Virus record (IMG/VR): IMGVR_UViG_3300037515_000188
Span: 1-64,000 of that record
DNA from: a virus
Direction: 5' to 3' (one strand)
DNA length: 64,000 nt
Position 1 is the stretch's first letter. The number at the start of each line of letters is the position of its first letter. The notes beneath the pieces were generated by a model. It did not search any database and was not told where the DNA came from. It was given only the letters and a program-made list of their open reading frames with translations. This document shows positions 1 through 60,037 of this stretch, in pieces. The translations under genes and the position numbers were made by a program.

Positions 1-3000
1 CTTATCTGTATAATAATGTTATTAATTAATTGATCCACTACATGTTTTATAATAACGTAAGTCTTTATTAATTGAAAAACTTTTATTTGCGGTGTATGAT
101 TATTAGTTTTAACAAATCCATATGGATGCGTGGAATAAACTGTTAAAATTTTCATAGTTAAATTTGTTTATTTTCTGCTATATTACTATATCAATGCACT
201 TTTTATTAAACCAAATATTTATCCAGATGTTTGACCATAATGGATATAAATATTCTCTCATATCAAATACTATAGTATCTAATTTAGTGTCTAATTTAAT
301 ATAAGAATCCGTTTTAATTTTTGTTAAAATATTATTTAAAATATGTCTATTTATAGAAGTTAAAATTTTCATTTTATAGTAGACCATATATCCAGACGTA
401 TTGGTTGAACAAATTGTTTTATGTTTCTTTGTATATCATTTAATCTAAAATACAAACCAATATATATTAATTTATCATTTCTTATTTTTTCTAAAATTTT
501 ATCTGTAACTGTAATATCAGTATGTTTTAATTTTAAGGGTCTCATTTTAATTTACAATAAATTATAGTATATATCAATACGTATATTATATCTATTAGTT
601 TCATTATTATTGAATTTTTATATTTTTAAGAATAAAACATTGTTTCTTCCATAATAATAATTTTTAATCTTCCAATAAATGCATCCAATGGTTGCAACCA
701 ATAATAATTTCCAAAGTGTGGATAACGTGGTAGTTTGTCATACGTATTATTTTTAAATTTTAAAATTTTCATATTTTTCAATAGGTTAGTTTACTTTTTC
801 CCTAGCTGGTAAAGAATTATAATCATATAAAAAATTTCGTACAATGGAACGTAAATCCCATAATGATCCTATTATAGTTAATTGTGATTGCTTGTTTTGT
901 CCAATTAGATTCCATAATGTATAATATACATTAGACCCGATACAGGATTTAAGAGTAAATTTTAAAATTTTCATATTTTTTAATAGGTTAGTTTATTTCT
1001 CTAACGAATAAGGAACTATTTCTGCTCTAATATTAGTCAATAATGGTTCAGTGGATAAATGTATTAACTTCCATAATGATGATAATGTTGATAGTTTTAA
1101 AACTCTTTTTTTATTTGTAATAATATACATTGCATCACCCATTTTTTCATGTTGTAATTCATAAGGACTAATTAATTTCATTTTTATATTATAACATAAT
1201 GGACCAGTATATTTTAATTCATAAGGTTTAATTAATTTCATATGTTATTTTTTATTTAACTGAAACCAAATACTCAGACGTATTGGATATATAAGTTGTC
1301 TTATATTTGTTTCTATATTTCTTATTTTGGCATAATATGGTAATGATTCTTTATAAGTATAAAACTTATTATGTAGACTATACATATATCTTAATTTTAA
1401 AATTTTCATTTCAATTAAGTTCCGACACTCCATCATAATAGATTTGAAATGTATATTTTAGACTTCTTTGTCTAAGACCTATCTGTATTGCGATTGGTTG
1501 TGAATATGCCTCATGCAATGCCAGAAATTGCCATGCCAGAGCACGAGCCTGTGCCGGACCATAGAGTCCAGCAGCATGTAGTAGACTACCATGCAGAGAC
1601 GGAGCAGGTATTCCGGCAGCATCATTAGTATTCTTAACAGGTATTTCTTTCCATGGATGAGTGGGATTTTCTCTATATACAGGTTCCCATCCGGTTATCG
1701 TTCCTTCCGCATGATCCGGAGTCATTTTAATTTTTCCAATATAGCATATAATTTTTTGGCGCAATGTCGGCATGCAGCAATATAACCTGCCCCATATAAT
1801 GGACCAAATGGGTTTTCATCCATGATAAAAGTGTTACATTTATCAGCAAATTCCTTTATTTCATTTTGTACTTCATCGAGTATGGTTTTTAAGTTTTCAG
1901 TCATGGTATTTTTCCTCTGTTGAATTAATTATAACATATAGAATAGTGTATTTAATAGATATTATATCATGACTGAATATTTTAGTATATATTTTTTCCA
2001 TTTCTGCAAATGATAGTGGCGAGTTAAAAATAATTCTTTTTTTATATGGATTAAAAATTAGTGTATTTAAAATTTGCATAAAGTTTTTCAGTGATATTTC
2101 TTTTTAAGTTGGATAATGATAATAATATCTCTCGTTTCATATTGAATATATTAGGTGGGGAAACTATTATAGTATATAATATTTCATCTTTTTTATAAGA
2201 TGGATTAAAAATTAATGTATTTAAAATTTTCATCTTATAAATATAACATAATTAAAATAATAAATCAAATCGTGGTTAATGCTTCCGATATCATATAGAA
2301 TTTATTATTATGGAAAGTATTCGAGATGTTTTTGTGTTAATATGATTGAATAGTCTAATACCTGATAATCCTGATAATCTTTCATTAAAAATAAGTTTCA
2401 TTTTCGTTCCTTCGTAATATCTGTTATAAACTAATGTATTCAAGATTTTCATTTTAATTGCATATATTCGATAATATTATTTTTAAGTTGGAAAGTATGA
2501 TCAAGTATTTTTTTCTCTATTTTTGATACTATGGAAAATTTATTCATGGATAATATTTGTTGTCTTTTATTCTTCCATATATAATTGTCTATGTTCGTAT
2601 GTATTATGGATTCTAAAATTTTCATAATGTAAGTCTAATATAATGGAAAGAATAAATCAATATATTTTAAAGCTAAATATCTAAAAATATTATGTTTTAA
2701 AGGTACTATATCATGAATATTTATTTTATCATATATATTTCTATTTTTTGTTATAAGTGATATTAAATATAAGTTAATACCAATTCGGTCTTTATTTGAT
2801 GGGTCATATATTAATGCGTTAAGTATTTTCATATTTTTTAGAACTGATGCGGTATCTGACACGTCCTGCTAATATATCCAATAGTGCATATCTATTAAAA
2901 TTTGTTCCGATGTTAATTTTGCAGTTAATATATTCATTAACATAAATTTTTATTTGTGTTATTAAATTGCTCATAATGTCAAATTCAGTATTGATTATTT

Positions 3001-6000
3001 TTCTATTTTTTCTTAATATATTAATATTAAAAATTTTTGGAATACTCCATTTACCTGTATCAGTATAAATTTTAGGTTCGTATATTAATGCGTTAAGTAT
3101 TTTCATATTTTTGTGTTTCTTGCCATATAATATTACGCAGTGGCATTATTATATTATATATATCTTGATATATAGTTCTAGTGTTTCTTGCCATATAATA
3201 TTACGCAGTGGCATTATTATATTATATATATCCTGATATATAGTTCTAGTCTTTGATGATGGATAATTAATAAATATATCAGGATGTATTATGGATTTTA
3301 AAATTTTCATATTATGAGTTTAACAAAATAGAAAGAATAAATCAATATCTAATAATAGTGTATTTTAAAGATATTATATCATTCATCCGCATATGGAAAA
3401 GTGTTTTACTATATATATTTTGTCGTTTCGCCATTGGTAAAGATAAATTAATGACGAAATTATTTTTATTGGAGTGATTATAAATTAATGTATTTAATAT
3501 TTTCATAATAAATCAGTTTCTTGAAGTATTGCTAAAAAAATATTCCATTTCATGGTCCCTATAATAGATATTCTGTCATCGGAAGTTATTAAAGAACGTA
3601 TCCTTTCCGATAGTTTGGAAATTAATAATTCATGAAAGAATAATTGTTCAGTTGCGGGAATGATATTTAATATTTTCATGTTTTGTTATAATTTGATGCA
3701 TGTTCATTAGTAGTGGAAATATTATATCATAAATGTAAATAAATACTTTGTCATTAGTTATTATCTGGCTGGTTAATGATAAGGGTAATTCATAACTTAG
3801 TATTTTTTTATCGTATATACGAAAGGTTAATGAGGTTAATATTTTCATTATATACACTGTTTAAGAATAATGTGTTTTAAACCTAATATATCGGAAATAG
3901 GGGAAATTATTTTAGTATATAATTTTTCATCTTTCTTTATAATTGATTTAATAATAATTATTTTTTCATAAGATGGATTAAAAATTAATGTATTTAAAAT
4001 TTTCATAATAATAATTGATAATAGAGATAATTTAATAATAATTCTTTTTTCATAAGATGGATTAAAAATTAATGTATTTAAAATTTTCATAATATATATA
4101 TTTTAATATGGAAAATAAATAAATGAGTTTATTTTTCGTAATATATGCATACGTATTGGATATATTTGTTGTTTTATATTTGTTTGTATATCTTCTATTT
4201 TATGATATTTGAAACAATGTCCTTCATTATATGATGAATAAATAAATTTATGTATATATTCATACCATACGGAACCTGCATATAAATTAAGTTGTAAAAT
4301 TTTCATAATGATATGGAGTCTATAATATTGTTTTTAATCGGAAGAATATGAGCATCTATCGTTTGCTCTATAGTTACCATAGTCTTAAAATTATTCATGC
4401 CAAACATCTGTGATCCTATATTTTTCCATAAATAATTGTCTATTTTATTTATGGTTCTTAAAATTTTCATGTTATTCTTTGTGTATATTTTCTATTATAT
4501 TACGCCATATTGGAATTATTGCATGATATACATAATTAAACACATTCATATTAACGTTAAATGTATTTGCCGGAATATTAGATGGTAGTCCAATAAATAT
4601 AGTTTTTTGTATATTAATATCTAATTTATTACATGATAAATCATTTAATATTTTCATTATGATATTATAACATGATATTGATAATGAATCAAATCATAAT
4701 TGAGGAGAAACATATCTAAGAATAGTATATTTTAAAGATATTATATCAAGAATGGAGTCAATATATATTTTAGTATATACTTTTTGCATTTCTGGCAATG
4801 ATAATACATATAAATTAATAGTACTTTCTTTTTGGTAAGCTGGATTATAAATTAATGAATTAAGTATTTTCATGATTTTTTATAAATTCTATAATGTTAT
4901 TCTTCAATATGATGGATACGATATCATATATTTTTACTTCCATATTTGTTATTCCAAACACGATATATTGGTCAGATAGTTTCATATTGAGCATAATATC
5001 TATTCTATTATATATGATAGATTCTAAAATTTTCATCTTATAAGTATAACATAATGGAAATAATGAGTCAAATATTGATTATATAATGAATAGTGAAATG
5101 GGAGATATTATAGATCAATCTAATTTTTTACATATATAATGAATAGAGATGTGGGGTGTAGTGGTATTATGTGGGAAATATTGGAAATCTATTGGGGGAT
5201 GTATTGAAGAGTTGGGGAGCTTAGTCCGCCTTCAATCTCTCATTAATATTTCAAAAATTTTATCTTTTAAAAGTCCCCGTATATTAATCATATCATTATA
5301 AAATTCGTAAAATTTATATGTATAAAATTCAGGTGATACTACCATAGGTGGCTCTATTTTCCATATATCCTTGTTGTTAATGTGTAATTTCAAAATTTTC
5401 ATAATATTTCATTAAAAGTCCCCATATATTAATACGTAATTTAATCATATCATTTGATAATTCTGATGTATAAAATTTAGATGTTACTAAAATAGCTGGT
5501 TTTATTTTCCATATATGCTCCCATATATGTTTCTTCCATTCTCTGGTATTATGTAATTTCAAAATTTTCATAATATTTCATTAATTTTATCTCTTAAAAA
5601 TCCCCATATATTAATATGTAACTTAATTATATTATCATTAAAAAATTCAGATGTATAAAATACAGATGCTATTTTAATATATAGGTCTATTGCCCATATA
5701 TGTTTATTTATTTCTTTATTAATGTGTAATTTCAAAATCTTCATAATTTTAAAACTCTCATAATTTCATTGTATACGTAATTGCGCAATCCATATACAGT
5801 ATTATAAAATTCAAGAGTTAATGTAGGACATATATAATATTCCACCATCTCTTTTAGTTCAATTTTTTGAAATTTCAAAAGTTTCATTTATGTTATAAGT
5901 ATAGCATAATAGAGATAATAAGTCAATTTATTTTTTCATATTTTTCAATAAGTTAGTTTATTTTTTCCCTAGCCAGTAAAGAAATAATTTATAGAATTAT

Positions 6001-8752
6001 TTTTTATTGGTGTGATGGATATATGAATTGGTCTCCATATTGTTTTCATTTCTAAATTAAATTTTTCTGACGCCAATGCATCCCAGCAGTTAAACTGTTT
6101 TTTATTCAAATTTTTTATTATATTATATAAATTTATTGATTCTAAATTTTTCATATTTTTCAATAGGTTAGTTTATTTTTTCTCAGGAGAATAAAATATT
6201 GTTTCTTTTATAATAATAATTTTTAACCCTCCAATAGATGTAGTTACTGGTAGTAGTATATAATTATATGTTCCAAAATATTGATAATATGGTAATTTGT
6301 TATACGTATTATTTTTGAATTTTAAAATTTTCATATTTTTCAATAAGTTAGTTTATTTCTTCTCGGGGGGAGTAAAACATTATTTCCTCTGCAAGAATAA
6401 TTTGTATCAATCCAAATTGGGTGTATAATGAACTCCACAATACTGTTAATTTTTTATTTAATGGATATGTACCGGGGACTTCAGGAATATTCATACTGAT
6501 AAGTGTATCGTTTATATGTAATGTTTTTAAAGTTTTCATAATCTATTAATTAACTTTGAAAATTTTATATCTAAATCTTCATATATATGATTACGTAATG
6601 AATTGGTCGCAACATTTATTTTCTGAAACATATTCAATGATAGCCAATAATTTTTTAACCCACCAATACTTATATCATTTCCTTTAATTTTTAATTTTAA
6701 AATTTTCATATTTTTCAATAGGTTAGTTTATTTTTTATCAGGATAATAAAATATTGTTTCTTTCATAATAATAATTTTTAACCCTCCGATAGATGTAATT
6801 AACTTTGAAAATTTTATATCTAAATCATCATATAAAATAGCAAGGAATGGATTTGTTGCAGCCTCTATTCTATGAAACATCTTTATCGCCAACCAATAAT
6901 TTTTTAACCCGCCAATACGTATATCATATCCTTTATTTTTTAAATTTAAAATTTTCATATTTTTCAATAAGTTAGTTTATTTTTTCCCTAGCTGGTAAAC
7001 AACCATTTCTGCTCTAATATTAGTCGTTAATGGTTCAGTGGATGAATATATTAAGTCCCATAATACACTACGTAGTAGTATTGGCATTTCCAATAATTTA
7101 TAATGTATATTAACACGTATATTGTATTTATTATTTTCCTTAGTTCTGAATTTTAAAATTTTCATAACTTTCAATAATGTTTATATTACTAGTTTTTAAT
7201 GGATAGACTGATATGAATACTGAATTCCATATGCTAGCTGGTTCATCATGTATTTCAACAAATGAATTTATATTACTCATTTTTATAGTATTGAATAGAT
7301 TTATAGATGTTAAAATTTTCATATTCTGTTATCACTAATTTAATAACATGTTTTAATACACTTATTTCATCAAATACAATAACTGAAATAATATTTGCAG
7401 TATCTACAGAATTTATTGTTAATTTATTAATTAAAGTATTATACCATAAAAATTCCGGCTTTTTAATTGATTTTAAAATTTTCATATTTTTCAATAGGTT
7501 AGTTTACTTTTCTCAGTGGGGATAAATAATTATTTGTTCTATAATATTAATTTGTAATATACCTACTGGAAAGGATATTAAATTCCATAATTTTGCCAAT
7601 GATCCTTCATGTATTATATCAAATGAATGGATATTACTCATTTCAATAGTATATAATAAATTAATTGATTTTAAAATTTTCATATTTTTCAATAGGTTAG
7701 TTTACTTTTTCCCTAGATGGTAAAGAATTATAATCATATAAAAAATTTCGTACAATGGAACGTAAATGCCATAATGATCCTATTACATACATTTGATTAT
7801 TATATTTAGATGACCATATTGTATAATATACATTATAACCAATACAGGATTTAATATTACATTTTAAAATTTTCATAAATTTCATCTACAATATTAGATT
7901 TTATCGAAGAAGTATACACATATATTTTCTTCCATATTTTTTTGTTTATTGTAAATGTATTAGATTCCCATAAGGTATAATATGTATCATACCCGATACG
8001 GGATTCAAAGTTAAATTTTAAAATTTTCATAAATTTCATCTACAATATTAGATTTTATCGAAGAGGTATACACATATATTTTTTTCCATATCCTTGTTTT
8101 TATTGTAAATTTAGATATATCGGGTCTAAATTTTAGATTATAAAGATTAAGTACTTTCATATATTATTTTGGTTTAATGTAATTTCCCGTTTTATATATG
8201 ATGTTAAAATATTAAATATAAAACCTAACTGTGACGACATTGCCGTTAACATGATTTTTTTATTAAGTGAACATGAATTTAAATTTGTAATTTTACATTT
8301 TATTTTAAATGCATTATCATTTTTTGAATGGGTAAGTGTTTTCATTAATCTGCTAGTTCTACTCTAAAATGTAAATTACAATTGGAGCATTCATAATTTG
8401 CATAATCACCACCACCGGTTAATCCATAATAATCATCATTGACATGATTGGCATCCGGATGTAGCCACCAGCCATTGTCACCCTTTGGCATGGGAGAATT
8501 TTTGAGCATATATTTCTTTGTTGCATTTTTGTATTATAACATAATGGATAATTAATGTAAAGAAAATGTTTTATGCAATTTTATACTTATGGATCGAATT
8601 TCATTTGTTATATGAAATTTTATATTGTGTAATGAAATATTGTGTAATGAAACATGTGTCAGTCGAGAAAAATTATTTTGTGTTTTATTCATATCATATA
8701 CTGCATCACCCAGTTTTGCATATATTAAATCATAAGGATTAATTAACTTCAT
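1..8752 (-). CDS. Array 1: ~40-45 tandem micro-ORFs (45-95 aa) of a hypervariable MK[ILT][IL] family
   Basis: ORF track plus shorter ORFs visible as recurrent (a/t)tttcat starts on the + strand. Starts are MKILK/MKILN/MKLI, stops overlap or abut the next start, and many pairs are paralogous. Confidence 0.75.
1411..1725 (-). CDS. hypothetical protein interrupting array 1 (likely start MTPDHAEG)
   Basis: Higher-GC ORF, not of the MK family; ATG overlaps the stop of 1722..1904. Confidence 0.6.
   Translation of the reverse strand: MTPDHAEGTITGWEPVYRENPTHPWKEIPVKNTNDAAGIPAPSLHGSLLHAAGLYGPAQARALAWQFLALHEAYSQPIAIQIGLRQRSLKYTFQIYYDGVSELN
1722..1904 (-). CDS. hypothetical protein
   Basis: 60-aa ORF preceded by GAGG. 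Confidence 0.65.
   Translation of the reverse strand: MTENLKTILDEVQNEIKEFADKCNTFIMDENPFGPLYGAGYIAACRHCAKKLYAILEKLK
3113..3248. repeat. 68-bp tandem duplication inside array 1
   Basis: 3113-3180 and 3181-3248 are near-identical. Confidence 0.9.
8345..8526 (-). pseudogene. small Cys-containing protein, apparently frameshifted in an A5 run
   Basis: The promoter-proximal ATG (8526) gives MQQRNICSK. The continuation NSPMPKGDNGWWLHPDA...YECSNC...ELAD* is in another frame (8345..8509). Confidence 0.45.
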
Positions 8753-8961
8753 TTTTATATTATAACATACTAAGTAATTGATGTAAAGGACGATTTTTCA
8801 GTTTTCAAATGGAAAACCCTAAACGATTTTTCCATTTTGGTTTTCAAAACCCTAATTGTTTTTAATTAATTTATGTAATCTTTAATTCATGAATTGTTAA
8901 TGATTAAAAACTCGTTAACAGAGTATTGACAAATTTATTTAATTATGTAATACTATATTAT

Positions 8962-9195
8962 ATGAAAGATAGTAATAAATTTCCATTATACTTATATGGA
9001 CCTTGTGACGAGGTAAATATAGTTCCTGTAGTGGGAGATACTATTGCGATTATGATATATTCCACCAGAGTATCGTTTAAGATCGTGACTGATGTTATAA
9101 CCGATGAATATGGATATATTACTATATGGGTAGCGGGTGATAAACAATATCGTTTATCTGAATGTTTTATTATACGATATGAGGAAATTAATTAA
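8962..9195 (+). CDS. hypothetical protein (probably leaderless)
   Basis: TTGACA...TACTAT immediately before ATG 8962; followed by a terminator. Confidence 0.7.
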   Translation: MKDSNKFPLYLYGPCDEVNIVPVVGDTIAIMIYSTRVSFKIVTDVITDEYGYITIWVAGDKQYRLSECFIIRYEEIN

Positions 9196-9230
9196 TTTAT
9201 TTGATTTCATATAAGGACATGGTTAAATTT

Positions 9231-9255
9231 TAGGACAGGGAAGTCCTTTTTTTTA
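9231..9255 (+). terminator. intrinsic terminator
   Basis: aggac-aggga-agtcct hairpin followed by a T run. Confidence 0.6.
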
Positions 9256-9760
9256 TTATAGTTAATTTATAAATTCTTTATATTCTATATTTTATATTGT
9301 AGTTTATATTATCATTAATCATTCCATTGGATATTATTAATGTTAATAATGATTCCATTGGAAATTCATTTATAATTTTTTAGTGGTGTGGTGTTATACT
9401 GTACTACAACACCAGTGTTGTTTTTTGCCACATATGGTGGTAAAAATACCACGGAATTTTAGTTCTGTTGTTTTTTTGCAACAGCTATGACAAAATAACT
9501 CCGGAACAACTATTCTGTTGTTTATTTGCAACATGTGTTGTAGTTATACCACACTTGTCTCGTTTTTGCAACTCCTTGTTGTTTATTTACAACAAATTTA
9601 TTTAAGATAAGCGAACCCCTTCCAGCGGGACGCTAGAATGATGATGATACTTACAGTATACCATAATGTAAAGATTATTTCAATGGGTTGACAAGATTGA
9701 TTTATTATGGTATTATATAGATAATGGGAGATATGAGTTTTCTAAAAGTTAAAAGCACAG

Positions 9761-9847
9761 ATTTCCCCCTGCTCGTGGCCTTCTCTCCGATGCTTCGCAG
9801 TCCTGTTGTTTATTGTTGGGAGCGGACTACTTCTTCTTCGACTTCAA
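9761..9847 (-). ncRNA. conserved 87-nt element, copy 1 (putative sRNA)
   Basis: Near-identical at 20500-20586 and 42574-42660. A - strand TTGCAT..TGgTATAAT promoter lies directly upstream; GTAGTCC/GGACTGC stem. Confidence 0.6.
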
Positions 9848-9944
9848 AACCATTATACCATAATAAGCAAAAAAATGCAAGGTGGATTTTTACTTTTATT
9901 TGTGATATGATAGGGGTTCTCAAAGTTGAAAGGAATTGATTGAA

Positions 9945-10109
9945 ATGAATGAAAACAAAGATACCTTAGATCATTTGGAAATGTGGCTTGCTTGTGAACC
10001 AGCGGATGAATATTGTACTGTAAGTTGGATGCGACAGATCGCTGCTGATTGGCGTGAAGAACGTTATCAATTTGAAGCATTTGAAAAACTAGTTGATAAA
10101 AATTGGTGA
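9945..10109 (+). CDS. hypothetical protein (54 aa), weakly similar to the N-terminus of 49164..49478
   Basis: MNENKDTLDHLEMWLACEPADEY...ADWREER vs DALDRLIEWINQEPEDK...RDWTKDR. Confidence 0.55.
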   Translation: MNENKDTLDHLEMWLACEPADEYCTVSWMRQIAADWREERYQFEAFEKLVDKNW

Positions 10110-12159
10110 AAACATTAAAATTTAAATATATTTATAAGCTTCCTAGAATTACTAAATATTATTATAGTAATACTAATAATATTAATTTGGTCTTTTTACA
10201 ATTACATTATGATAAATTAGGAAATGTTGTAGGTAATCAGGTATATGAGCAATTAAAATTTCCATTATTGCAAGAGTTAGATAATGATAATAGAATTATA
10301 TTAAAAGGTACTGCATATAGAATTATATTAAAAGGTACTGCATGATATGAAAATTTTAATTGATAATAATAATTTGCAGGATTTTGATAATATTAGACAA
10401 TTGCTAATTAGAAATCATAAAAATAAATATTTTGATATGTATTTATTATATGAGACTGGAGTATTTTATAATCTTGGTTCATTGTGTGATATACTCCGAG
10501 AATCAATTGATGAAAACAATTGTTTTTAAAAATATGAAACAGTATTATGATATATGTTTTTCTAATGAGATATTTAGAAACTTATTAGGTACTAAATTAA
10601 GTGCTGGAATTAGTATTGAAATGAATCCTGTTAAAATTTCAATTGTTCAAATATTGTGTGAACAAATGAGAATGATTAATGAAACTAATAAATTCAATTC
10701 TTTCTAATTATGGTGATTTACCGCACTATAGTTTCTATAGTATAATTAAAAATTCAATAGGAGTTACAACATGTGTTTCAACATATAGTAAAATTCATAA
10801 TCAGTTACATCAATTGTATGTAATATGGTTAAATATATCTTGTGAAATGGAAAATTATTTTAGTGGGGAGAATTGATTAATGAAAACAATAAATTCAATT
10901 CTTACTGATTATGGTTATTTACCACATTATAATTCCTATCTTACAGTTAAAAATTCAATAGGAGTTACAACATGTGTTTCAATATATGGTGAAATTCATA
11001 ATCATTTATCTCAATTATATATATTATGGTCGGATATATCTTGTGAAATGGAAAATTATTTTGGTGGGGAGAATTGATTAATGAAACTATTAAAATTTAC
11101 ATATACTCATAATCTTCCTACCGTTCCTAGATATTATTATTGTTATATTACAATTGCGCACTCAATAGGAGTTACAAAATGTAATTCAATATATAGTAAA
11201 ATTCATAATCAGTTACGGCGACGGAATATATTATGGTTTTATATATCTTGTGAAATGGAAAATTGTTTTTTTATGCGGAGAATGATTAATGAAAATTATA
11301 AACACATTAAAATATTATGCCTGTTTTCATTACATTAGGTTCATTATGTAATATAATTAAAGAAGTAATTAATGAAAGTCATCCCTATTAAAAATATACA
11401 ACGTTGTTATTATGGGGCATATTGTTATTATGGGGTATATAATAATATTGAAAGATTAATAAGTAGTAAATTGTGTATTAACATTAATTTTAGAGTATAT
11501 CCTGTTAAGAGTTCAGTTGTTCAAATATTGGATGATCAAGTGAGAATGATTAGTGAAAACAATAAATTCAATTTTTGCTAATTATGATGGTTTAGTTTAT
11601 TATCATTACTGTATTACAGTTGAGAACCCAATAAGAGTTACAAAATATAAATCAATATATGATGAAGTTCATCATCAGTTGCATCGGCGCAATATACTAT
11701 GGTATGATATATCTTTTGAATTATGGTATAATATATCTTGTGAGATAGAAGAGTGGAAAAATTATTAATGAAGCCGTTACAATTACCTGCTCCTTGTTTA
11801 TTAGAATATTATTATGATATAATAATTAAAAAACTAGTGAAACCGGAAAAAATTAATTTAATAAAGAATACATTTGATTCGATAGAATATAGTCCTATAT
11901 TAATACTTGCTGAGATTACAAATAGGTTTAAACAATTAAAAATTATTCTAATATTATGAAAATTATAAACACATTAATGTATAATATAGAATTACGAAAA
12001 AAGATATATACAATTATACAAGAATATGATAAAAAATATGCATCCATGCGGTTTCCTTCTGTTCCGTATGATACAAATGATTCAGTTTCTAATAAGATGT
12101 ACCCGTTTACAAATATTGTAGTGGACGAATTATTAAGAATAATTCATAAAAGATATTGA
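10103..12159 (+). CDS. Array 2: ~11 tandem MK[TLIV][IL] micro-ORFs
   Basis: 10679, 10880, 11081 and 11553 are clear paralogs (SIGVT..SIY..IH.QL....LW..ISCEME); overlapping ATGA junctions. Confidence 0.75.
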
Positions 12160-12290: not shown

Positions 12291-13199
12291 ATGGAAATTT
12301 CAGAACAAGTGCTAGAAAGTTTAAGAACCGAGTGGATTGATATTGGTTTTTCTACTGGTGATGTAGATGTGGAAAAGGCTAAGCCTTATATTGAAGAAAT
12401 TTATCGCAATGGTAAATTCGATCCACCTGAATTTTATTTTGTAGTTAGTTCTCCTATTGAATTGCTGCAATATAAAACAGTGTTGGAAACTCTTGATCTT
12501 GATGTCCTTCGTAAATCGAATGATCCTTATAAGTTGGTTGCCAAAAAGGCTAAAAAAATAACCAATATTAAACTTGATTATGAACAAATCTGTTTTGGTA
12601 ATCATGATGCCGCAAGCTTGGCATTTTATGATTATTTTGTTCGTTATGAACATGTTGATGGTATCGAACCCATTGTTCCATTTATTGAACTTGCAAAAGT
12701 ATGTGGATGGTGGATTCCATTAGACGGAGCGGTTATTCTTACCAATTTACCAACATCCATTAAAAAGGATGATGAAGGTAGATTGCATTGTGATAACGGT
12801 CCTGCCATTTCTTATGATAACAGTGATTTTGAAGTGTATATTTGGCATGGAGTAAGAATTCCTCCTGAGTGGATCAGAGACAAGAGTTTAACTGCTGAAC
12901 AGGCATTAAAACATCCACAAATAGAACAGCGTAGAGCCGCATGTGAAATTTTAGGGTGGCACAATGTTTTGGAACAGCTAAATAGTATTATAATCGATGA
13001 TCATGATGATGAAGAGATTGGTACATTGATAGAAGTTGAAATACCTGATATTGGAACTGAAAGATTTCTTAAAGTGAAGTGCGGTACCGGAAGAATATTT
13101 GCCATTCCTGTCCCGCCAGATATTAAAACGGCCCTAGAAGCAAATGCATGGACTTATGGGGTTGCGGCAAATGATTACATACCGGAGATTAGAACATGA
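12291..13199 (+). CDS. DUF6745-family protein
   Basis: Motifs FGNHDA..LAFYDYF, CGWWIP, DDEGRLHCDNGPAI, WHGVRIP, EQRRAACEILG, C.TGR.FA.PVPP. Confidence 0.8.
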   Translation: MEISEQVLESLRTEWIDIGFSTGDVDVEKAKPYIEEIYRNGKFDPPEFYFVVSSPIELLQYKTVLETLDLDVLRKSNDPYKLVAKKAKKITNIKLDYEQICFGNHDAASLAFYDYFVRYEHVDGIEPIVPFIELAKVCGWWIPLDGAVILTNLPTSIKKDDEGRLHCDNGPAISYDNSDFEVYIWHGVRIPPEWIRDKSLTAEQALKHPQIEQRRAACEILGWHNVLEQLNSIIIDDHDDEEIGTLIEVEIPDIGTERFLKVKCGTGRIFAIPVPPDIKTALEANAWTYGVAANDYIPEIRT

Positions 13200-13549
13200 G
13201 AACATTTAAGAACTGTGCAGCACAAGGCGATATTTTGATTACCAAAATTGAGTCTTTGCCTGAAAATATAGTAGAAGTAGCACCGACGGAAACAGGTGTG
13301 CATATCGTTGCCCATTCGGAAACAGGGCATCATCATGTAATTACATGTGATGACGTTGACTATTTTCATGCCGCAAATAATGATGATATGGATGGTTTTG
13401 TATCATATTTGCGCGTGAATAAAGAGACAACGCTTCGTCATTTGCGCACCTTTGATACCCATGAGCCAATTAAATTTCTTAAAGGCTTATTCAGGTTAAA
13501 TCGTCAGCGGGAATATGTAGCTGAAGGTTTCCGTAAAGCTCAAGATTAA
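13196..13549 (+). CDS. His-rich partner protein usually adjacent to DUF6745 genes
   Basis: AQGDILI, AHSETGHHH, H.THEPI, RQREY motifs; ATGA-coupled to the upstream gene. Confidence 0.75.
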   Translation: MRTFKNCAAQGDILITKIESLPENIVEVAPTETGVHIVAHSETGHHHVITCDDVDYFHAANNDDMDGFVSYLRVNKETTLRHLRTFDTHEPIKFLKGLFRLNRQREYVAEGFRKAQD

Positions 13550-51599: not shown

Positions 51600-54500
51600 A
51601 TGTATTATATATAATACATTAACCAAAACTATCTTATATTTTTTTTTAAAAAATTTTGATCCATTTCATCTTGCATTATCATTTTAATATCAGATAAATT
51701 ACTATCATAAACTAATTTACTGTATATCTTCCTACGGTAAGTAAAATGATCATAATATATCATGCGAGGATGTAATATCTTAAAATAACATTTATTAATA
51801 ATATGCATAATCTTAATTTATAAGTTTATCAATATTCAATAAAAAATTTTATTATTTTTTTAATTAACTATATATTAAAAATTTTTTTTACCAAAAAATT
51901 TCGATTTAATTCATTCTTTATCATCACTCTTATATCATTTAAATGAAATAATATATGATATAGATAATATGCTTTAGACTGATTATAATTTAATAGCGTA
52001 TGCTCAATATAAGCAATTGAATCATTATACCTATAAAAAATATCTTTAACAATATTCATCTTCTAATTCTTCCACTATTCGATCTATTAACTCCCCCAAA
52101 ATATCAGTAAAATATACAACATCATATAACAGAGAATCATCATAATTCAATGGTAAACGTATTTTATAATAAAAATCTACATCAAGTTGTTTATATATTG
52201 GTTTCATACTAAATTTATCCTCTAATAATTAATTACAAATTTGTCAATTTTACTAGAAAATTCAATAAATCTTATATATAATTTTTATTCTTATTTCATG
52301 ATTTATTATATTCTTTATTATATTTAAATCATTATCATACATTATTTTACTATACATTTTTCTCATACTAAGACTCCGAGGGGATAAGATATTAAAAATT
52401 AAAGTATCTTTAATGATTTTCATTTTTTCATTCTAATAATAATATCTTGCAAAAAATAATCAATAACATTTATCATCATCCATAATTTTATATCATTTTC
52501 AGATGGATATATCTCTTTAAAATCGTGCATCATTAATGCCAATTCAATATTAATTTTTAATGTGTTATAAATTAATTTCATCAAATTTCAGACTAATATT
52601 AATTTACTTGTAATTATATTCATATACTTCTATTTCTTTTAATATTATATCCCTAATATTCTGATTAAATAATACTTTATCATACAATAAAACCCAATAG
52701 TCCGGATATAAGTTATATAACCTTAATGGTAGTTCAATTACTTGTTTATAAATTATTTTCATCCATCGCATTCTTTATTATCATATTCTTTATTATATTC
52801 AAATCATTATCATATAAGAATCTATGATATAAATAATTTCCTTTAAAATTGAAATCATTATCAATATAAACAAATAAATCGTTATATCTATAAAAAATAT
52901 CTTCAATAATTTTCATCTTTTCCATTTTCCAATTATATAATCTATTACATAATCTTCTATTAATTCTTCTAATACTATATTTACTGGTTCCCATATAATA
53001 TTATTAAAATATATACCATCATATAAAAATAATGTTGTATTATAATTATTATCAATTAACATTAAACGTATTCTATTAAATACATCCATAGAAATTTTTT
53101 TATAAATCAGATTCATAAAATATATAATCCAATTCTTCCAATACTACATCCAACAAAAATTCTTGATCCCCCAAATCATACATCTGTAATAGTTCTGAAG
53201 AATAATAACCTCCATCATATAATGCCTGACTAATAATATCAATATTAAACTGTTGATAAATCAGGTTCATAAAACATATAATCCAATTCTTCTAATATAA
53301 TATCAATTAATGAGTCTTCTTGAATCCTCCACTCAATTAATGAGTCTTTAATCCTCCACAATAAATCATACATCTGTATTTTTTGATAATAATCATTATC
53401 AAATATAGATTGTTCAATAACATTAATATTAAATTTTTTATAAATCAATTTCATATATTTTTTTTCTTAGTTCATGATTTATCATATGCTTTATTATATT
53501 CAACTCGTTATTATATATTAATGTATGATATTTGGTATAAATAATTTCATCCAGATCAAACATATAATGTTCAAATGCATTAAATGATTTACCCTTTAAG
53601 AATATTATTTTTCCAATAGTTTTCATAAATTTTTTAATGATTCCAATATAGCACTCTTTAAACGTATTATATTCATCATAATAGTAAAATATATTACCTC
53701 TTCTATTTTTGCATACTTTTTTTCATGCGTCAGTATATACCTGCCATCACCATCCCATTGTATTTGTTTATATATTAGTTTCATATATTTTCAATTCATC
53801 CAATATGATATCGATCATTGATTCTGAGTCATGCCATATAATATTCTGTTGTACATAATTCCATGTAATATTTTGTTTCCTATTCATAAAATCATGTATC
53901 TGAAATATTTCTGAATGATACTCGGTAACGAATAACATGTATACCTTATCTACGATACTAGCAAATTGGACATGAATTTGTTTCATAATTGCAATTCATC
54001 CAATAATACTGTTCTTATACCCGTAAGTCCGGGAATATAGATTATACGATTTATTTTTATGCTTTTAGCATATAATAATGTATAGAATAAATTTCCATCA
54101 AATTTATTTAATTGTTTATATATTAGTTTCATATATTTTCAATTCATCCAATATGATATCGATCATTGATTCTGAATTATACCATATAATATAATCCCAT
54201 GTAATACTTTGTTGCTTGTTTATGAAATCATGTATCTGTAATACTTCCGGATGATACTCGTGACATAATAATATATAAATAGTTGGTCTTATTTTAACTA
54301 ATTGTTTATTAATTATTTTCATATAATTCATCCAACATATCATCCACTACTTCTAATGTAATTCTAAATCGAGTAATATTATATACACTATCCATATAGT
54401 GAGATAAATACATCATTGCATCATAATGATTTTCACTTAATGATGAATATATTTTATCAAATACATTTTCTTCAAATTGTTTATAAATTAATTTCATTTT

Positions 54501-57500
54501 TTATTTGTTCTTTGATAACACTTAATATAGTTACAATATCAACCGAATATAATGGTAGAGTATAATAAAAATGAGTTTTTATTAACATCCAATGTATAGA
54601 ACCGAATACATTTTCTTCAAATTTGTTATAAATTAATTTCATATATTATACGCACCATATCATTAAAAAATAATTCATCTAATAATAAATTCTGAACCAA
54701 CACCAAATGCATGATTCTATAATGTTTTAACGGCTGCTTTATAACGTAAATTATTATCTATATTAAATTTAAACCCATTTAATTCATTATATACAATATT
54801 CATTATTTTAATTTGCCAATTCATTCAAAATAAATAATCTTAATAATTTTGTTGGATTATCAACATACCAACATATATTTGTTTCATCCGTTCCGGAAAT
54901 TTCGTTCCATAATGTAATACCCATTGCTTTTAATACAGTCTTTTTATATACCAACTTATGGAGTAATTTACCATTAGCAGTAAATTCATTTAATGAGTTA
55001 TAAATAATTTTCATCATAATTTATCCATTATAATATCCATTATGATATCATGTATTGCATCTACCCTTAATAATTTTTCTATTATTATTGGTTTGGAAAT
55101 ACACCAACATTTAGATATTTCATTTTCCGTTGCCGTGAAATACATTATACCCGACATATTTCCACGAAATAATATATAAGTTATTTTAACTAATTGTTTA
55201 TTAATTATTTTCATCTAAATTGGATTAATTCATCTATTATTAATTCCATCATAATTATTTCTAAAGTATTAAATTTAAATGTATGATAATACTTGTTATA
55301 CTCATTTATACATATTGAATTATATACGTCAGTAAGTATAATTGATTCAAATTGTTCATAAATCAATTTCATGAATTTATTTTCTTATAACTTATACAAA
55401 TCATATAACGTGTATAATATAAAATCTTTCATATGCAATCCAACATCTTCTCGTATAATAACTGGTTGTTCATGTTGGTAATAATACTTACAATAAATTC
55501 CCCGCCTGATTTGTTGTTCCCTAAATTTCATTTGGTTATAAATGAATTTCATTAATTTGTTCCATGATTGATAATTTTAATAATGAAGGGCTTTCACGAT
55601 TACTTAAAAAAACATTTGGCCCATTATGTAAAATTAAATTATACATTATCACTGGTTTAATTTTAACTAAAATAAATAGCATGTTTAATCTCCATTAAAA
55701 TAAATTGTATTAATGTTCTTGGAGTATTATTAATATTCCAAAATCTAGTTTTTACCATATCATTATTATAACATAATAATTTAAATAATAAGGGTTTTAT
55801 TTGAGATAATTGGTTATTAATTGTTTTCATACAGTATTGTAACATTATGTAAATTCAATTGTTTATAACTTAATTTCGTAATTCTTCCATTAGTTTATTT
55901 CGTATATCTAATATACTTTCAAAATAAAATGACAATAATAGTTTTGGATAATAATGAATACCCAATATTTTCCAATATATGTTATCAAATATATTTTCAT
56001 CAAATTGGTCATAAATTAATTTCATAAATTTGATCCCATATCAATATTTTAATTAAATTTAAATGCCCCAATATATTATAGGCAAATTATGCTTTTTACG
56101 ATATTCATGTATTAATATATTAATGATAAATGCATTTAATTGATTATAAATTAATTTCATCTTCGATATACTCATTATCATCTATTTCATCAACTATGGC
56201 ATCTGTAATAGTCCATAAAATATTATCATTTATAATATAGTCAATACAATCATAAGATTCTTCGCTTAATATAACTTTAAACTTACCAATTAATTCTGAT
56301 TCCAATTTTTTACAAATTATATTCATTTTTTATTTCTTCTTTTATTCTTAGTAATGGAACAAATACATTATTTGTAGGAGAATTAATCACTATATTTTGA
56401 TCATATGTTAATATTTTATTAAATTCATAATTATAATAAACTATAAGAATAGCTATTATATTAATTATAATTTCATTTAATTCTTTATAAATTAATTTCA
56501 TCTTCTAAATACTCATATACTCATATTCATTTATTTCATTAATTATAGTAGTAATAATCAATAAAATATTATCATGAATATATATTGCATCATAATATTC
56601 TTCACTTAATGGCAAATATAATTTATCTGTAAATATTAAATATAATTCTTTATAGATTATAATCATTATAGTATCTAATGTAATATTTCATAAAAAATGT
56701 AATCTTGTATTATTCTAATTAAATTAAATGATCTATGTGTAGTATGATATAATTGATTTACAATGCCTGAATGATCTATAACCATTTTACGAGGTTTCTC
56801 ATGGACACGAAGATCAAATAATTTGTTTTTAATAATTTTCATAAACTTGATCCAATATCAAATATACTGCCGCATGTCCAATCTGCGTTCTTATCATAAT
56901 CTGCATTCTTATCATACCAGTTAATTGATATATTCTATTTGATATAACATTATTATAAATATAATTTACATTATTCCTATCGTGCAATCGGTAATTTAAT
57001 AATTGTTTATAAATATTTTTCAATTTTTTTTCTTATGGATGCATCTAATCATCTGTATTTATTTTCGAGGAAAATGTATAACATTCTATTAACAAGTTTC
57101 TTACCATAACTGTAAAATTAATTTTAAGTAATTCTTTAAATAATAATTTTCTTTTTTCTTTAAATTTATGTTTTAAGACAACCTGCATGACAAATACATC
57201 TAAATTTATTTTAATATTGTTCATAAATTATTTTCCATGCATTTTTTTCATCAATTAATTGTTCTTTTATTAATAATCGTATAGATAGTAAATCATTATA
57301 ATAATATGATAATGATCCAATTATTATTTTTGATTTATTAGAATTTAATTCATTGCTATAAATTATATCATATATTGGTCGAAATATCAATGCTCTATTT
57401 ATAATAGTTTTCATAAATTATCAAGTTCGTGAATTATAAACATTTTTATATTATTAAAAATCAATAACATATAAATTTTATAATAATCTGAATATGCTAT

Positions 57501-57548
57501 TAAATCAAATATATATGTTATTTTTAATTTGTCGTTAATTAATTTCAT
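51600..57548 (-). CDS. Array 3: ~30 tandem micro-ORFs (MKLIY/MKII/MKTI family)
   Basis: ORF track plus shorter ORFs; C-termini ..I(L/I)(D/E)EL..YE overlap the next ATG; promoter TTGATA-17-TATAAT before ATG 57548. Confidence 0.75.
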
Positions 57549-57597
57549 AACTATTGTATTATACATTGTTTTTTTATTAATATCAATAAATACGTCT

Positions 57598-58245
57598 ATG
57601 AAATTGAATGAAATAATAGATTTTAAACATGAGATAAAATCAGCATCCGATCTTAAACCCGGAGTATTACAGGGTAGAGGATTTTTTTCAAAGGTATATA
57701 CCGATCAGGATGATCCACACATGGTTATAAAACAATCTAAATTTTCCGACCAACTTGATACAAGTGATGGGTATTACAAATATATTGAAGCAACCATTAA
57801 AAATGGAATGAATGGGGTTAATCCATATGTACCTAGAGTTTATAAAATAAATGCGATTGATACTGGTATGCAACTTATGAAAGGAGTAAATTCTTATAAT
57901 CATGAAGTTCAAATAGAAAAATTAAATGTGGTGTATGATCTTGATATTAAAGATATTGAATTTATTTTGTCGAAAATTTTTCCAGAAGATTTAGTATCTT
58001 CATTATTATCAAAGGAATCACCAAATGAAATATTTGAATCCGTATCTGATATATTATTTAAAATATTAAAAGGTACATATACAATTAAGAAAACCTTATC
58101 CAAGGATTTAAATCAAGTATTGGAATTAATTAAAAAATTATATGATGATAAAATAATTACAGAAATTGATTTAAAACCAGCAAACTTAATGATTCGTAGA
58201 AGTCCATATGGTCCACAACTTGTTATTACCGATCCGGCGGCATAA
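57598..58245 (+). CDS. protein kinase-like (T7 gp0.7-type) paralog 1
   Basis: GRGFFSKVY, P.MVIK, PRVY, DLKPANLM.R, LVITDP; ATAAATA upstream. Confidence 0.8.
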   Translation: MKLNEIIDFKHEIKSASDLKPGVLQGRGFFSKVYTDQDDPHMVIKQSKFSDQLDTSDGYYKYIEATIKNGMNGVNPYVPRVYKINAIDTGMQLMKGVNSYNHEVQIEKLNVVYDLDIKDIEFILSKIFPEDLVSSLLSKESPNEIFESVSDILFKILKGTYTIKKTLSKDLNQVLELIKKLYDDKIITEIDLKPANLMIRRSPYGPQLVITDPAA

Positions 58246-58246
58246 T

Positions 58247-58858
58247 ATGAAATTAAATGAAATTATAGACTTCAGACATGATAAAATTGATATGTCTTCC
58301 ATAAAACGTGGGGAACGAATGGGTTCAGGATTCTATTCAACTGTGTATGCGGATAATGATGATCCACACATGGTTATAAAGGATATGGAACGCCATGGGG
58401 GTGATAAACCAAGAGATGGATTTTCCAGCTATATAGAAGCAATTATTGAAAATGGAATGAATGGAGTAAATCCTTATGTTCCTAGAGTGTATAAATTAAA
58501 TTCCTCTAAAACCAAAGATAATGAATATAAACATACTTATCAAATTGAAAAATTAAATGATCTTGAACATTTAGATAAAAAAGATTTTGAATTTATATTT
58601 TCAAAACTTCTTTCTGAAGATAAGATTAAAGAATATACAGATCATTCTGTTCGTTTAGCATGGGCTTTGGCTTCTTATATTGATGATTTAGTACATGGAT
58701 ATGAACCATTGTCAAAATCCAAGAAATTAAATGAAGTTATAGAACTTATCAGACAATTATATCAGAGAGGACTTTCCTATGATATAAAACCTGAAAATAT
58801 GATGTATCGTTCAACACCATATGGGGCACAATTGGTTATTAGTGATCCATTATATTAA
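58247..58858 (+). CDS. protein kinase-like paralog 2
   Basis: GSGFYSTVY, DIKPENMMYR, LVISDPL. Confidence 0.8.
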   Translation: MKLNEIIDFRHDKIDMSSIKRGERMGSGFYSTVYADNDDPHMVIKDMERHGGDKPRDGFSSYIEAIIENGMNGVNPYVPRVYKLNSSKTKDNEYKHTYQIEKLNDLEHLDKKDFEFIFSKLLSEDKIKEYTDHSVRLAWALASYIDDLVHGYEPLSKSKKLNEVIELIRQLYQRGLSYDIKPENMMYRSTPYGAQLVISDPLY

Positions 58859-58869
58859 TAAATATATTT

Positions 58870-59493
58870 ATGAAATTAAATGAAATAATACAATCGGAAG
58901 TATCTATTCATGATACAAAAGATTATAATCCATTACAGATGGGAGATCATATAGGAACCGGAACATATTATACAAGTTATGAAAATCCTGATGATCCTCA
59001 TACAATTCATAAATTCTCAAGACAACCAACAATATCCCATGATGGATTTAAAATTTATGCTGATTACATTATAAAATATAATTTAGCATCGAAAAATCCT
59101 TATTTTCCAAGAATATATAAACATCGAACTAATATAGAACCTCCATCTGATTTATCATATGAATTTGAAATAGAAAAATTATTATTATATTATGATATAA
59201 GAATAAAAGAATTTCGTCCCATACTTGAATTATTATTTAATGACTCTGAAGTTGAAGAAATTATGAACATACATAGTAATGAAGGAATTACAATTAAAAT
59301 TGCTAGAAAAATACGATTGATGATAACACAAAATATAAAAAGTAAATCAAAATTATTAAATCAGGCATTTTTTATTATACAAAAGATAATACGTGATAAT
59401 TCTGATATATATATTGATATACATGAAGATAATATCATGTTTAGAAGAACTAATTCTGGCATTCAATTAGTTATTAATGATCCATTAGTTTAA
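58870..59493 (+). CDS. protein kinase-like paralog 3
   Basis: GTGTYYTSY, DIHEDNIMFR, LVINDPL. Confidence 0.8.
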   Translation: MKLNEIIQSEVSIHDTKDYNPLQMGDHIGTGTYYTSYENPDDPHTIHKFSRQPTISHDGFKIYADYIIKYNLASKNPYFPRIYKHRTNIEPPSDLSYEFEIEKLLLYYDIRIKEFRPILELLFNDSEVEEIMNIHSNEGITIKIARKIRLMITQNIKSKSKLLNQAFFIIQKIIRDNSDIYIDIHEDNIMFRRTNSGIQLVINDPLV

Positions 59494-59741
59494 AACTCAG
59501 GTAATGAAAATATACAATAATTTTCATCCAATCCATATTTTCCACCATAAAAAATATATTGTATTTCAAAGGGATCAAGTTTTCTTCCAGTGTATACACC
59601 ATTAACGGTTTCTTCAAGATAAATCATATCATATTTTTTAAACTCGCGATCATTAAAACGTAATTCAAATTTTTTATCCCCGCGTTCTATTGCTTGATAA
59701 TATTCTGTTTCAGTTTTTAAATGATGATGTTGCCTGCTCAT
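59490..59741 (-). CDS. DUF3850/ASCH-like protein
   Basis: H.LK...EYY.AI..G.KKFELR.NDR.F...D...L.E, GL...Y.I.S. Confidence 0.85.
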   Translation of the reverse strand: MSRQHHHLKTETEYYQAIERGDKKFELRFNDREFKKYDMIYLEETVNGVYTGRKLDPFEIQYIFYGGKYGLDENYCIFSLPEF

Positions 59742-59761
59742 AATTTATTCTCCAATTATTT

Positions 59762-60037
59762 TTAAGATATTGAAAAGATACAATAATCTTCATGTATTCC
59801 ATTTATATTATCACCATATAAAATATGTTTTATTTCAAATGATGGATATATTCTACCAGTTCTTGTTCCATTGACGGTCTCTTCAAAATAAATCATATCA
59901 TATAATTTAATGTTATTAGAATTTTCTCGTAATTCAAATTTTTTAACCTTGCGTTCTAAATCTTGAAATTCTTTTGTTTCCAAATCTAAATGATGATGTT
60001 CTCGGCATCTACCATAATATCCAGTTTGTATAACCAT
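59762..60037 (-). CDS. DUF3850/ASCH-like protein, diverged paralog
   Basis: Paralog of 59490..59741. Confidence 0.75.
   Translation of the reverse strand: MVIQTGYYGRCREHHHLDLETKEFQDLERKVKKFELRENSNNIKLYDMIYFEETVNGTRTGRIYPSFEIKHILYGDNINGIHEDYCIFSIS

Follow-up and report, generated by a model that had tools for sequence, protein, structure and literature searches.

Much of the unexplained coding capacity of large phages lies in blocks of tiny open reading frames (ORFs) without homologues elsewhere, i.e., ORFans, almost none of which has a known partner. Among the systems described so far, T4-type phages contain hyperplastic regions with PeSL (promoter-early stem-loop) cassettes (Arbiol et al., 2010; PMC2839356; PMC4122927), and cyanophage S-PM2 carries an ORFanage, which was reportedly dispensable in culture (Puxty et al., 2015; PMC4503421). 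The host-takeover module of phage SPO1 encodes single-purpose products that bind host proteins, e.g., RNA polymerase (Gp44), HU (Gp46) and ClpCP (Gp53) (PMC6873191; PMC8892312; PMC8208478). The locus discussed here comprises three arrays of mini-genes in the IMG/VR virus record IMGVR_UViG_3300037515_000188; the analyzed stretch, further called the window, covers the first 64 kb of this single record of 109,848 bp. The first-pass annotation of the window held that no system of this form had been described, a statement that is too strong, since the T4-type hyperplastic regions, the S-PM2 ORFanage and the SPO1 module are partial precedents. Together, the arrays contain ~86 genes in ~16.8 kb, i.e., ~15% of the 109.8-kb contig. 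They consist of real coding mini-genes, a private, expressed-looking library, and one of them runs into a gene for a protein of the DUF6745 family. The explanation favored here, to which slightly less than an even chance is given, is that the library represents, without QV repeats, the type of detachable mini-gene library that is linked to DUF6745 in many uncultured large phages, and that its products are alternative subunits of that core.

Array 1 occupies positions 1-8752 on the minus strand and consists of 44 chained mini-genes for proteins of 48-120 amino acids, 41 of which are members of a family and three are unrelated inserts; the member at 3-155 (minus strand) is cut by the contig end. 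A divergent, mostly non-coding control region at 8753-10102 separates it from array 2 on the plus strand (10103-12159), which has 9-11 mini-genes, including a core family of five paralogues, and runs into the DUF6745 gene. Array 3 (51629-57566, minus strand) has 33 chained mini-genes, the products of which typically start with MKLIYKQ and end in an acidic I..I..EL helix. Some 40-45 small ORFs on one strand, as well as two further arrays at 10.1-12.2 and 51.6-57.5 kb, had been proposed from the first inspection, and both proposals held up. The 44 ORFs of at least 45 amino acids cover 90% of the minus strand of array 1, whereas shuffles of the same DNA yielded 2.7 such ORFs on average (maximum 7), and ORF coverage of the plus strand of 1-8752 is 16-29%. 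Coverage of one strand amounts to 96% in array 2 and to 91-93% in array 3. Chance ORFs in regulatory DNA or in decayed, A+T-rich repeats would be compatible with the composition of the putative products, 54% of the residues of which are I, L, K, N, or Y, as A+T-rich DNA encodes. However, this explanation is already contradicted by the number of ORFs and their restriction to one strand, by indels in multiples of three, and by the conserved ATG starts and overlap junctions discussed below, and it can practically be dismissed.

The mini-proteins share their ends rather than their middles. In array 1, 38 of 40 family members start with MK[ILTVN][ILV], as opposed to three of the 102 other ORFs of at least 100 amino acids in the genome, and a C-terminal P-[ILF]-x-x-x-[IM] motif is present in 13 of the 40 vs. 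2.0 in shuffles; both features had been noted before, in slightly narrower form. Across all pairs, the first tenth of the protein shows an identity of 0.47-0.55, which drops to ~0.2 in the remainder apart from a slight rise in the C-terminal third, so that the earlier term "hypervariable" is appropriate. The regular spacing of hydrophobic residues that was also reported is real, as the autocorrelation of I/L/V/M at lag 4 is ~5 standard deviations above that in shuffles and is absent from control genes, but it is weak (+0.11 to +0.15). As had been expected of small helical products, AlphaFold2 models based on paralogue alignments are mostly helical: one array-1 member was modeled as a short N-terminal and a long C-terminal helix (mean predicted local distance difference test score, pLDDT, 74.6), and one array-3 member as a single long helix (pLDDT 77). 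Array-1 members are mostly basic, with 35 of 40 carrying a net positive charge and a median isoelectric point of 9.5. The possibility that they are membrane peptides was rejected, as the longest apolar run comprises only 10-12 residues and membrane segments are absent.

All-vs.-all BLAST grouped the mini-proteins into clusters of 26 (array 1), 19 (array 3 plus one array-1 gene), 5, 5, 4, and 3 members, with the best pairs of paralogues being 61-88% identical. Among 14 close pairs, 22 of 26 internal indels were multiples of 3, and the chance that the observed substitutions, if placed neutrally, would have created no stop codon amounts to a product of ~1e-14 over these pairs, which are not fully independent. 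The Nei-Gojobori ratio of non-synonymous to synonymous substitution rates (dN/dS) of close pairs ranges from 0.38 to 1.37, and substitutions at codon positions 1, 2, and 3 number 210, 155, and 165, respectively, i.e., without excess at the third position. Since extreme A+T bias inflates dN/dS, these values are taken to mean that constraint on the middles is weak or diversifying. The first-pass annotation had pointed to ratios near 1 with random frame-breaking as the mark of decayed repeats; the ratios do extend around 1, yet the frames are kept. There is firm constraint on the reading frame, on the N-terminal peptide (MK-hydrophobic-hydrophobic) and on the helical, amphipathic C-terminus, whilst the middle is free to change.

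The arrays are also subject to ongoing duplication and recombination. A junction cassette of 54 nt, in which a C-terminal tail and TAA are separated by an 18-nt spacer from the ATGAAAA that begins the next gene, is found at 7677-7730 and in eight further copies, nine in total, at 766-819, 968-1021, 5933-5986, 6148-6201, 6328-6381, 6703-6756, 6952-7005, and 7479-7532, all on the minus strand. The 118-nt segments at 757-874 and 7668-7785 are 98% identical although they are 6.9 kb apart and the gene bodies are only ~73% identical, which is a mark of gene conversion. Recent tandem duplications measure 68, 84, 154, and 249 nt; one tandem duplication joined two gene heads in frame (3848-4090), and gene 6728-6967 is a chimera of two subfamilies. 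The copies of the 68-nt tandem duplication (3108-3243, minus strand) are 96% identical, and one of them is missing in the contigs of sediment run X4 (joint 3112->3181, side 163). In a comparison of four sediment runs, in which most joints were discounted because their sides were <50 nt at paralogous repeats, the loss of this copy was the only difference, with zero substitutions relative to the window across the arrays. The gene accordion suggested in the first-pass annotation is partly supported by duplications, chimeras and the 98%-identical junction segment, but the difference between populations is limited to one 68-bp duplication.

Such turnover raises the question of whether the mini-genes are near-neutral ORFan filler of a hyperplastic region, in which cassettes multiply by recombination at conserved junctions and promoters, frames are kept open only to spare the expression of downstream genes, and single products do little or nothing. 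The lack of a third-position excess, the dN/dS of around 1, the conserved junction cassette, the chimeric genes, the gene-conversion tracts and the confinement of the family to this phage would all fit. There are precedents as well: PeSL cassettes shuffle ORFans in T4-type phages (PMC2839356), and cyanophage S-PM2 reportedly lost a block of ORFans, comprising 13% of the ORFs, in a spontaneous event that raised its fitness in culture (PMC4503421). On the other hand, ~86 intact frames at 22% G+C demand continuous selection, the C-terminal motif and the hydrophobic periodicity represent constraint at the protein level, and the Nei-Gojobori ratios are inflated as explained above. Furthermore, 15% of the contig is a high cost, and the docking model described below also speaks against it. 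Filler is thus considered an improbable explanation.

A family-specific promoter precedes at least eight array-1 genes and one array-3 gene. It has the form TTGAYTYATT..., TATGTTATAMT, six bases and ATG. The extended -10 promoter TATGTTATAAT, followed by 6 nt and ATG, is located at 8750-8769 (minus strand), ahead of gene 8552-8752, and seven more copies of TATGTTATAAT are found on the same strand at 8524-8543, 5889-5908, 5034-5053, 4655-4674, 2231-2250, and 1179-1198, and, in array 3, at 55756-55775. The combination TATGTTATAAT-N6-ATG has nine matches in the window vs. 0.88 expected. The best copy of the full 29-nt motif with -35 and -10 elements, TTGAYTYATTATTTCCATTATGTTATAMT, is at 5043-5071, and others are at 2240-2268, 2632-2660, and 5898-5926 (all on the minus strand), i.e., four occurrences vs. 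none expected. In the control region at 8753-10102, TTGACA-17-TATTAT is found at 9688-9716 on the plus strand. A generic scan for sigma-70 promoters was uninformative in this A+T-rich DNA, with 148 sites vs. 136.5 in shuffles, and significance was reached only by the longer motif specific to the family. Probably, a host-type sigma-70 polymerase would read the arrays from the many strong extended -10 promoters, and the promoter motifs suggest that expression may be early.

As only six bases separate the -10 element from the ATG, the transcript likely starts on the start codon, and the first genes of the transcription units are probably leaderless. The junctions between array-1 genes (n = 43, with refined starts) show the stop/start overlaps that had been reported as a sign of coupling: 21 overlap, of which eight as ATGA, 11 over a longer stretch and two over 1-3 nt, 13 are spaced by 0-25 nt, and nine by larger, promoter-bearing gaps. 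A strong Shine-Dalgarno motif was found in none of 40 genes in array 1, in two of nine in array 2 and in two of 33 in array 3, vs. 19 of 63 long ORFs. Since array genes mostly do not have such a motif, internal genes would rely on overlap coupling or A-rich spacers. The presence of Shine-Dalgarno sites in ~30% of the long ORFs of the phage and their absence from array genes point to two initiation modes in one genome, and the arrays may offer a clean natural example of phage translation without Shine-Dalgarno sequences, whether leaderless or coupled. In the 82-residue product of gene 993-1241 (minus strand), the MKLI(K/S)PYEL head occurs twice, and the second occurrence has its own TATGTTATAAT-N6-ATG promoter (the copy at 1179-1198), located inside the first. 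Hence, a shorter, leaderless product may also arise from this gene. Its head and promoter share 81% identity with their counterparts in gene 8552-8752, 7.5 kb away.

Outside this phage, no homologue of the mini-proteins was found among 15 billion proteins. A profile of 21 array-1 proteins matched only the phage's own proteins when searched against 5.8 billion clusters, and an exhaustive HMMER search of 1.84 billion representatives yielded its own proteins plus one spurious match, a repetitive protein of 1494 amino acids. The core family of array 2 is equally private in profile searches. With ten representative mini-proteins, nothing below an E-value of 0.02 was obtained in Pfam and PHROGs; a search of the ESM Atlas by features gave no usable match, and Foldseek against viral structures gave nothing below an E-value of 6.9, a fold search of little power as the models are simple helices. 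Thus, assignment to a described family, which the first-pass annotation had listed as a refutation, did not follow from Pfam, PHROGs or profile searches. At the DNA level, array 1 had no megablast match among 50,697 phage records, and the junction motif was not found in IMG/VR when searched for exactly.

The relation between the arrays was addressed with hidden Markov models (HMMs) searched against all 606 ORFs of the genome. The best matches of the array-1 HMM outside its own array are four array-2 genes (E-values 9e-4 to 7e-3), followed by array-3 genes, and those of the array-3 HMM are array-1 genes (E-value 2e-5). The scores between arrays are 9-19 bits, as compared to 1-3 bits for shuffles in which composition and the first five residues are preserved, 0-1 of 300 of which reach the real score. 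These weak but consistent matches indicate that the three arrays are probably one old, very diverged superfamily private to this phage. The earlier description of the arrays as being of the same design, which suggested an obvious single family, is not supported in that form, as hhalign leaves arrays 1 and 3 unlinked and the arrays are joined by no more than weak HMM matches.

The gene at the end of array 2 (12291-13199, plus strand) encodes a repeat-less DUF6745 protein of 302 amino acids (Pfam E-value 1e-25), the sole copy in the contig and the predicted docking core. Array 2 stops 132 nt short of it, and array 1 is divergent and 3.5 kb away. The next gene (13196-13549, plus strand) encodes a His-rich partner of 117 amino acids with an HSETGHHH motif (phrog_27831, function not assigned), which is 46% identical to its counterpart in locus L028. 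Such a His-rich protein accompanies DUF6745 here and in loci L004, L005, L013, and L028, and possibly belongs to the system as a third component. DUF6745-anchored loci were collected from IMG/VR and JGI. At least 20 of the 79 loci of at least 4 kb bear chained mini-genes for proteins of 50-80 amino acids with xxQV repeats, a lower bound as the simple detector used misses some. The products start with M[KRT]x[VI], after which tetrapeptide repeats follow, as seen in 93 non-redundant examples from 11 loci. Arrays of such xxQV mini-genes beside a repeat-less DUF6745 (PF20530) gene are found in L004, L005, L010, L025, L028, L048, L053, L057, L086, L087, L091, L094, and L121.

In other cases, i.e., L113 and gene 38 of Mycobacterium phage prophiGD102-1, a QV tract is located inside the DUF6745 protein itself, between the SP and GxHD motifs. 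At this site, the protein encoded in the window has 43 unrelated residues (58-100). The occurrence of the QV tract as an internal part of some DUF6745 proteins and as separate proteins next to others connects the repeat module to the core by a fusion/split ("Rosetta stone") relationship. The HMMs of arrays 2 and 3 score real QV mini-proteins at 17-22 bits, where shuffles reach maximally 7-13 bits and none of 300 reach the real score; in the reverse direction, the best E-value of a QV HMM was 0.12. In L028 (11173-15960) and L005 (3617-9891), the QV arrays are open in three frames, i.e., the QV frame, a second frame (TKS) and one on the opposite strand (DLV), and the conserved MK start and matches to the array HMMs were seen only in the QV frame. 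A full-text search of the literature for DUF6745 or PF20530 retrieved no paper, nor was any found on chained xxQV arrays.

The proposed interaction was modeled by complex prediction with the DUF6745 protein of the window, represented by an alignment of 17 sequences, and the array-2 protein encoded at 10880-11074, represented by an alignment of five paralogues. The interface score ipSAE (interaction prediction score from aligned errors) was 0.66 (median of 0.74, 0.66, and 0.57), as compared to 0.00 for the best of three controls. In a benchmark, 58 of 80 solved complexes and two of 110 mismatched pairs attained the mark for this score, although the use of own alignments makes these counts only approximate here. 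Between runs, at least 76% of the contacts agree, and the pLDDT of the partner is at least 59. In the model, the mini-protein makes contact with residues 1-7 and 35-62, i.e., with both ends, and residues 8-34 are mostly free. On the DUF6745 side, the contacts involve residues 55-70 and 92-115, on and around the site of the QV tract, and conserved positions such as G19, P55, I157, I173, and G187. Sequence and profile searches of the PDB with DUF6745 gave no significant match; as no solved relative was found, it is unlikely that the score reflects a memorized structure. The model supports, but does not show, binding of this array-2 mini-protein to DUF6745. The specificity subunits mentioned among the possibilities in the first-pass annotation thus become more plausible through the neighboring DUF6745 gene and through the docking result with its controls, the latter for one array-2 member.

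In the favored explanation, each mini-protein would clip onto the DUF6745 core via its conserved ends, at the position where other DUF6745 proteins hold an internal xxQV tract, and one constant core would then display many alternative surfaces. Docking of array-1 and array-3 products, early timing and a host-directed role would be extrapolations beyond the modeled pair. In its most far-reaching form, DUF6745, perhaps together with the His-rich partner, would take any of the ~86 mini-subunits, the constant ends of which dock and the variable middles of which are exposed, resulting in a combinatorial recognition system; this form is regarded as rather unlikely. The anti-defense decoys or sensor blockers considered earlier for the mini-proteins are pure conjecture.

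Several observations weigh against the mini-proteins being subunits of DUF6745. An xxQV repeat or a Q-V consensus is absent from the mini-proteins of the window, in which the lag-4 value is 0.06-0.15 vs. 0.68 in QV proteins, and hhalign finds no relation to QV proteins for either array 1 (probability 0.2%) or array 3 (0.9%). The HMM matches to QV proteins may reflect only a shared four-residue hydrophobic rhythm. Also between the arrays, hhalign probabilities are low, i.e., 0.4% for array 1 vs. array 3 and only 20% for the array-2 core vs. array 1. Array 3 is 38 kb away from the DUF6745 gene. The docking model covers a single mini-protein, from array 2, with a partner alignment of just five paralogues. 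The conservation of the N-terminus could serve translation initiation (AUGAAAAUU) instead of docking, and dN/dS values of ~1 are also compatible with weak constraint. Finally, we know of no precedent for a single core that serves 86 partners.

The mini-proteins could alternatively be stand-alone early effectors, each binding a different host protein or nucleic acid in the service of host takeover or counter-defense, and expanded and diversified by an arms race, in which case the neighborhood of DUF6745 is coincidental. The small size of the genes, their many sigma-70-type promoters, and the adjacent rIIA/rIIB region are in line with such a role, and so are the predicted helical structure of the products, the basic nature of most array-1 members, the absence of membrane segments, the dN/dS range with frames kept, and the fact that arrays 1 and 3 are not adjacent to the DUF6745 gene. 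Precedents are found in SPO1, the host-takeover module of which has 26 small genes (PMC6873191), and in T4 with its small early genes. However, the known host-takeover modules hold unrelated genes and not ~86 paralogues, and the recurring synteny of DUF6745 and mini-genes, the docking model and the match between the constant parts of the mini-proteins and the parts that make contact in the model are all left unexplained. Independent effectors are a serious contender, to which about one third of the total weight is given.

If the most far-reaching form of the DUF6745-linked explanation is true, recognition diversity would stem from a library of genes instead of from mutagenesis, as by diversity-generating retroelements (DGRs), or from the swapping of fibers, and unique helical bodies would be used here in place of the usual xxQV repeat module. 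The case offers a testable handle in the form of a private library of ~86 members, one conserved candidate receptor encoded adjacent to it and a modeled interface that uses the constant parts. Should binding be confirmed, it would provide the first function for a widespread Pfam family and explain the constant ends and variable middles of the mini-proteins.

The record is classified as linear in IMG/VR and has an estimated completeness of 47% (CheckV), which together imply that it is probably about half of a phage genome of at least 200 kb. Its source is an uncultured large phage found in sediment, of which about half of the genome has probably been sequenced. A circular or terminally redundant contig was rejected, as there is no overlap between the ends. 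The record encodes rIIA, rIIB, two RNA ligases, a HerA-type ATPase, a DNA ligase and five tRNAs. Its G+C content is ~30% overall and drops to 21-23% within the three arrays. DNA nearly identical to it was found in several sediment metagenome runs, and identical mini-proteins are also carried by three to six other contigs. With rIIB as an anchor, one phage of 345 kb (L041) was retrieved, with 38% identity and without comparable arrays, and a metagenome scan with DUF6745 gave no close relative, the best match being 58% on a 1.5-kb contig.

The inserts in array 1 are all on the minus strand. One is a 120-residue ORFan (1411-1773) without a homologue outside this phage, which overlaps a non-family ORF of 60 amino acids (1722-1904), and another is an ORF of 54 amino acids with a CxxC motif (8345-8509). 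The G+C content of array 1 is locally raised at 1411-1904, coinciding with the ORFan, and this segment looks like a foreign insertion into the array. Divergent from array 3, three tandem paralogues of ~210-240 amino acids with a weak match to protein kinases are encoded at 57529-59493 (plus strand); all three have MKLNEII at or near their start. Beside them, at 59490-60037 (minus strand), two tandem paralogues of 83 and 91 amino acids form a separate small family with common motifs HHHL...KKFELR...YDMIY.EETVNG. At the end of the window, from 62705 to 64000 (plus strand) and running on to 64441, a protein of 578 amino acids is encoded with many leucine-rich repeats of the BspA type (SLQSVPLFNT..VT.MSSMF). 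Probably, it is a host-recognition or surface protein.

When compared with known systems, the arrays resemble the PeSL regions in having repeated, strong sigma-70-like promoters between small ORFans and short conserved DNA motifs that act as recombination points, leading to shuffling and chimeras, and in being located near rIIA/rIIB in a large phage. In contrast to PeSL cassettes, in which the promoter is paired with a stem-loop terminator, no such pairing was found in the window, where three terminator-like sites vs. 2.0 expected in shuffles were detected, all on the plus strand and none on the coding strand. Moreover, hyperplastic ORFans are mostly mutually unrelated, whereas the genes in the window are paralogous. 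The S-PM2 ORFanage is similar in its large share of the genome, i.e., 13% of the ORFs there vs. ~15% of the bases here, and in the lack of homologues elsewhere (Puxty et al., 2015; PMC4503421). With the SPO1 host-takeover module, the arrays share the clustering of small genes behind host-type promoters (PMC6873191; PMC8892312; PMC8208478). The 26 small early genes of SPO1 are, however, unrelated, each encoding its own fold, whereas one family is present ~86-fold here; in Pfam, PHROG, Atlas and Foldseek searches, no characterized host-takeover member showed a relation in sequence or fold to the mini-proteins.

Tandem expansion and divergence of one family, linked to host interaction, is known from the amplification of K3L in poxviruses and from the multigene families (MGF) of African swine fever virus. 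Those are full-size proteins of eukaryotic viruses, and changes in copy number under selection have been shown for them, whereas in the arrays only one 68-bp polymorphism was seen, in the comparison of four sediment runs.

The QV arrays next to other DUF6745 genes differ from the arrays in the window in several respects. The present case is far larger, with ~86 genes at three loci, of which one is 38 kb away from DUF6745, and its arrays have 22% G+C, no Shine-Dalgarno sites and leaderless promoters. The likenesses concern the architecture. In both, genes for 45-85 amino acids with an M-K-x-[IV] start are lined up on one strand, and the upstream gene reads the next ATGAAA in another frame (..NEI.. 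in both). The arrays are located on both sides and strands of a repeat-less DUF6745 gene and its partner of 116/117 amino acids, and the layout of L005 is divergent, as it is here. In both, the members diverge fast, and some members of QV arrays keep the constant start with a body that is devoid of the repeat.

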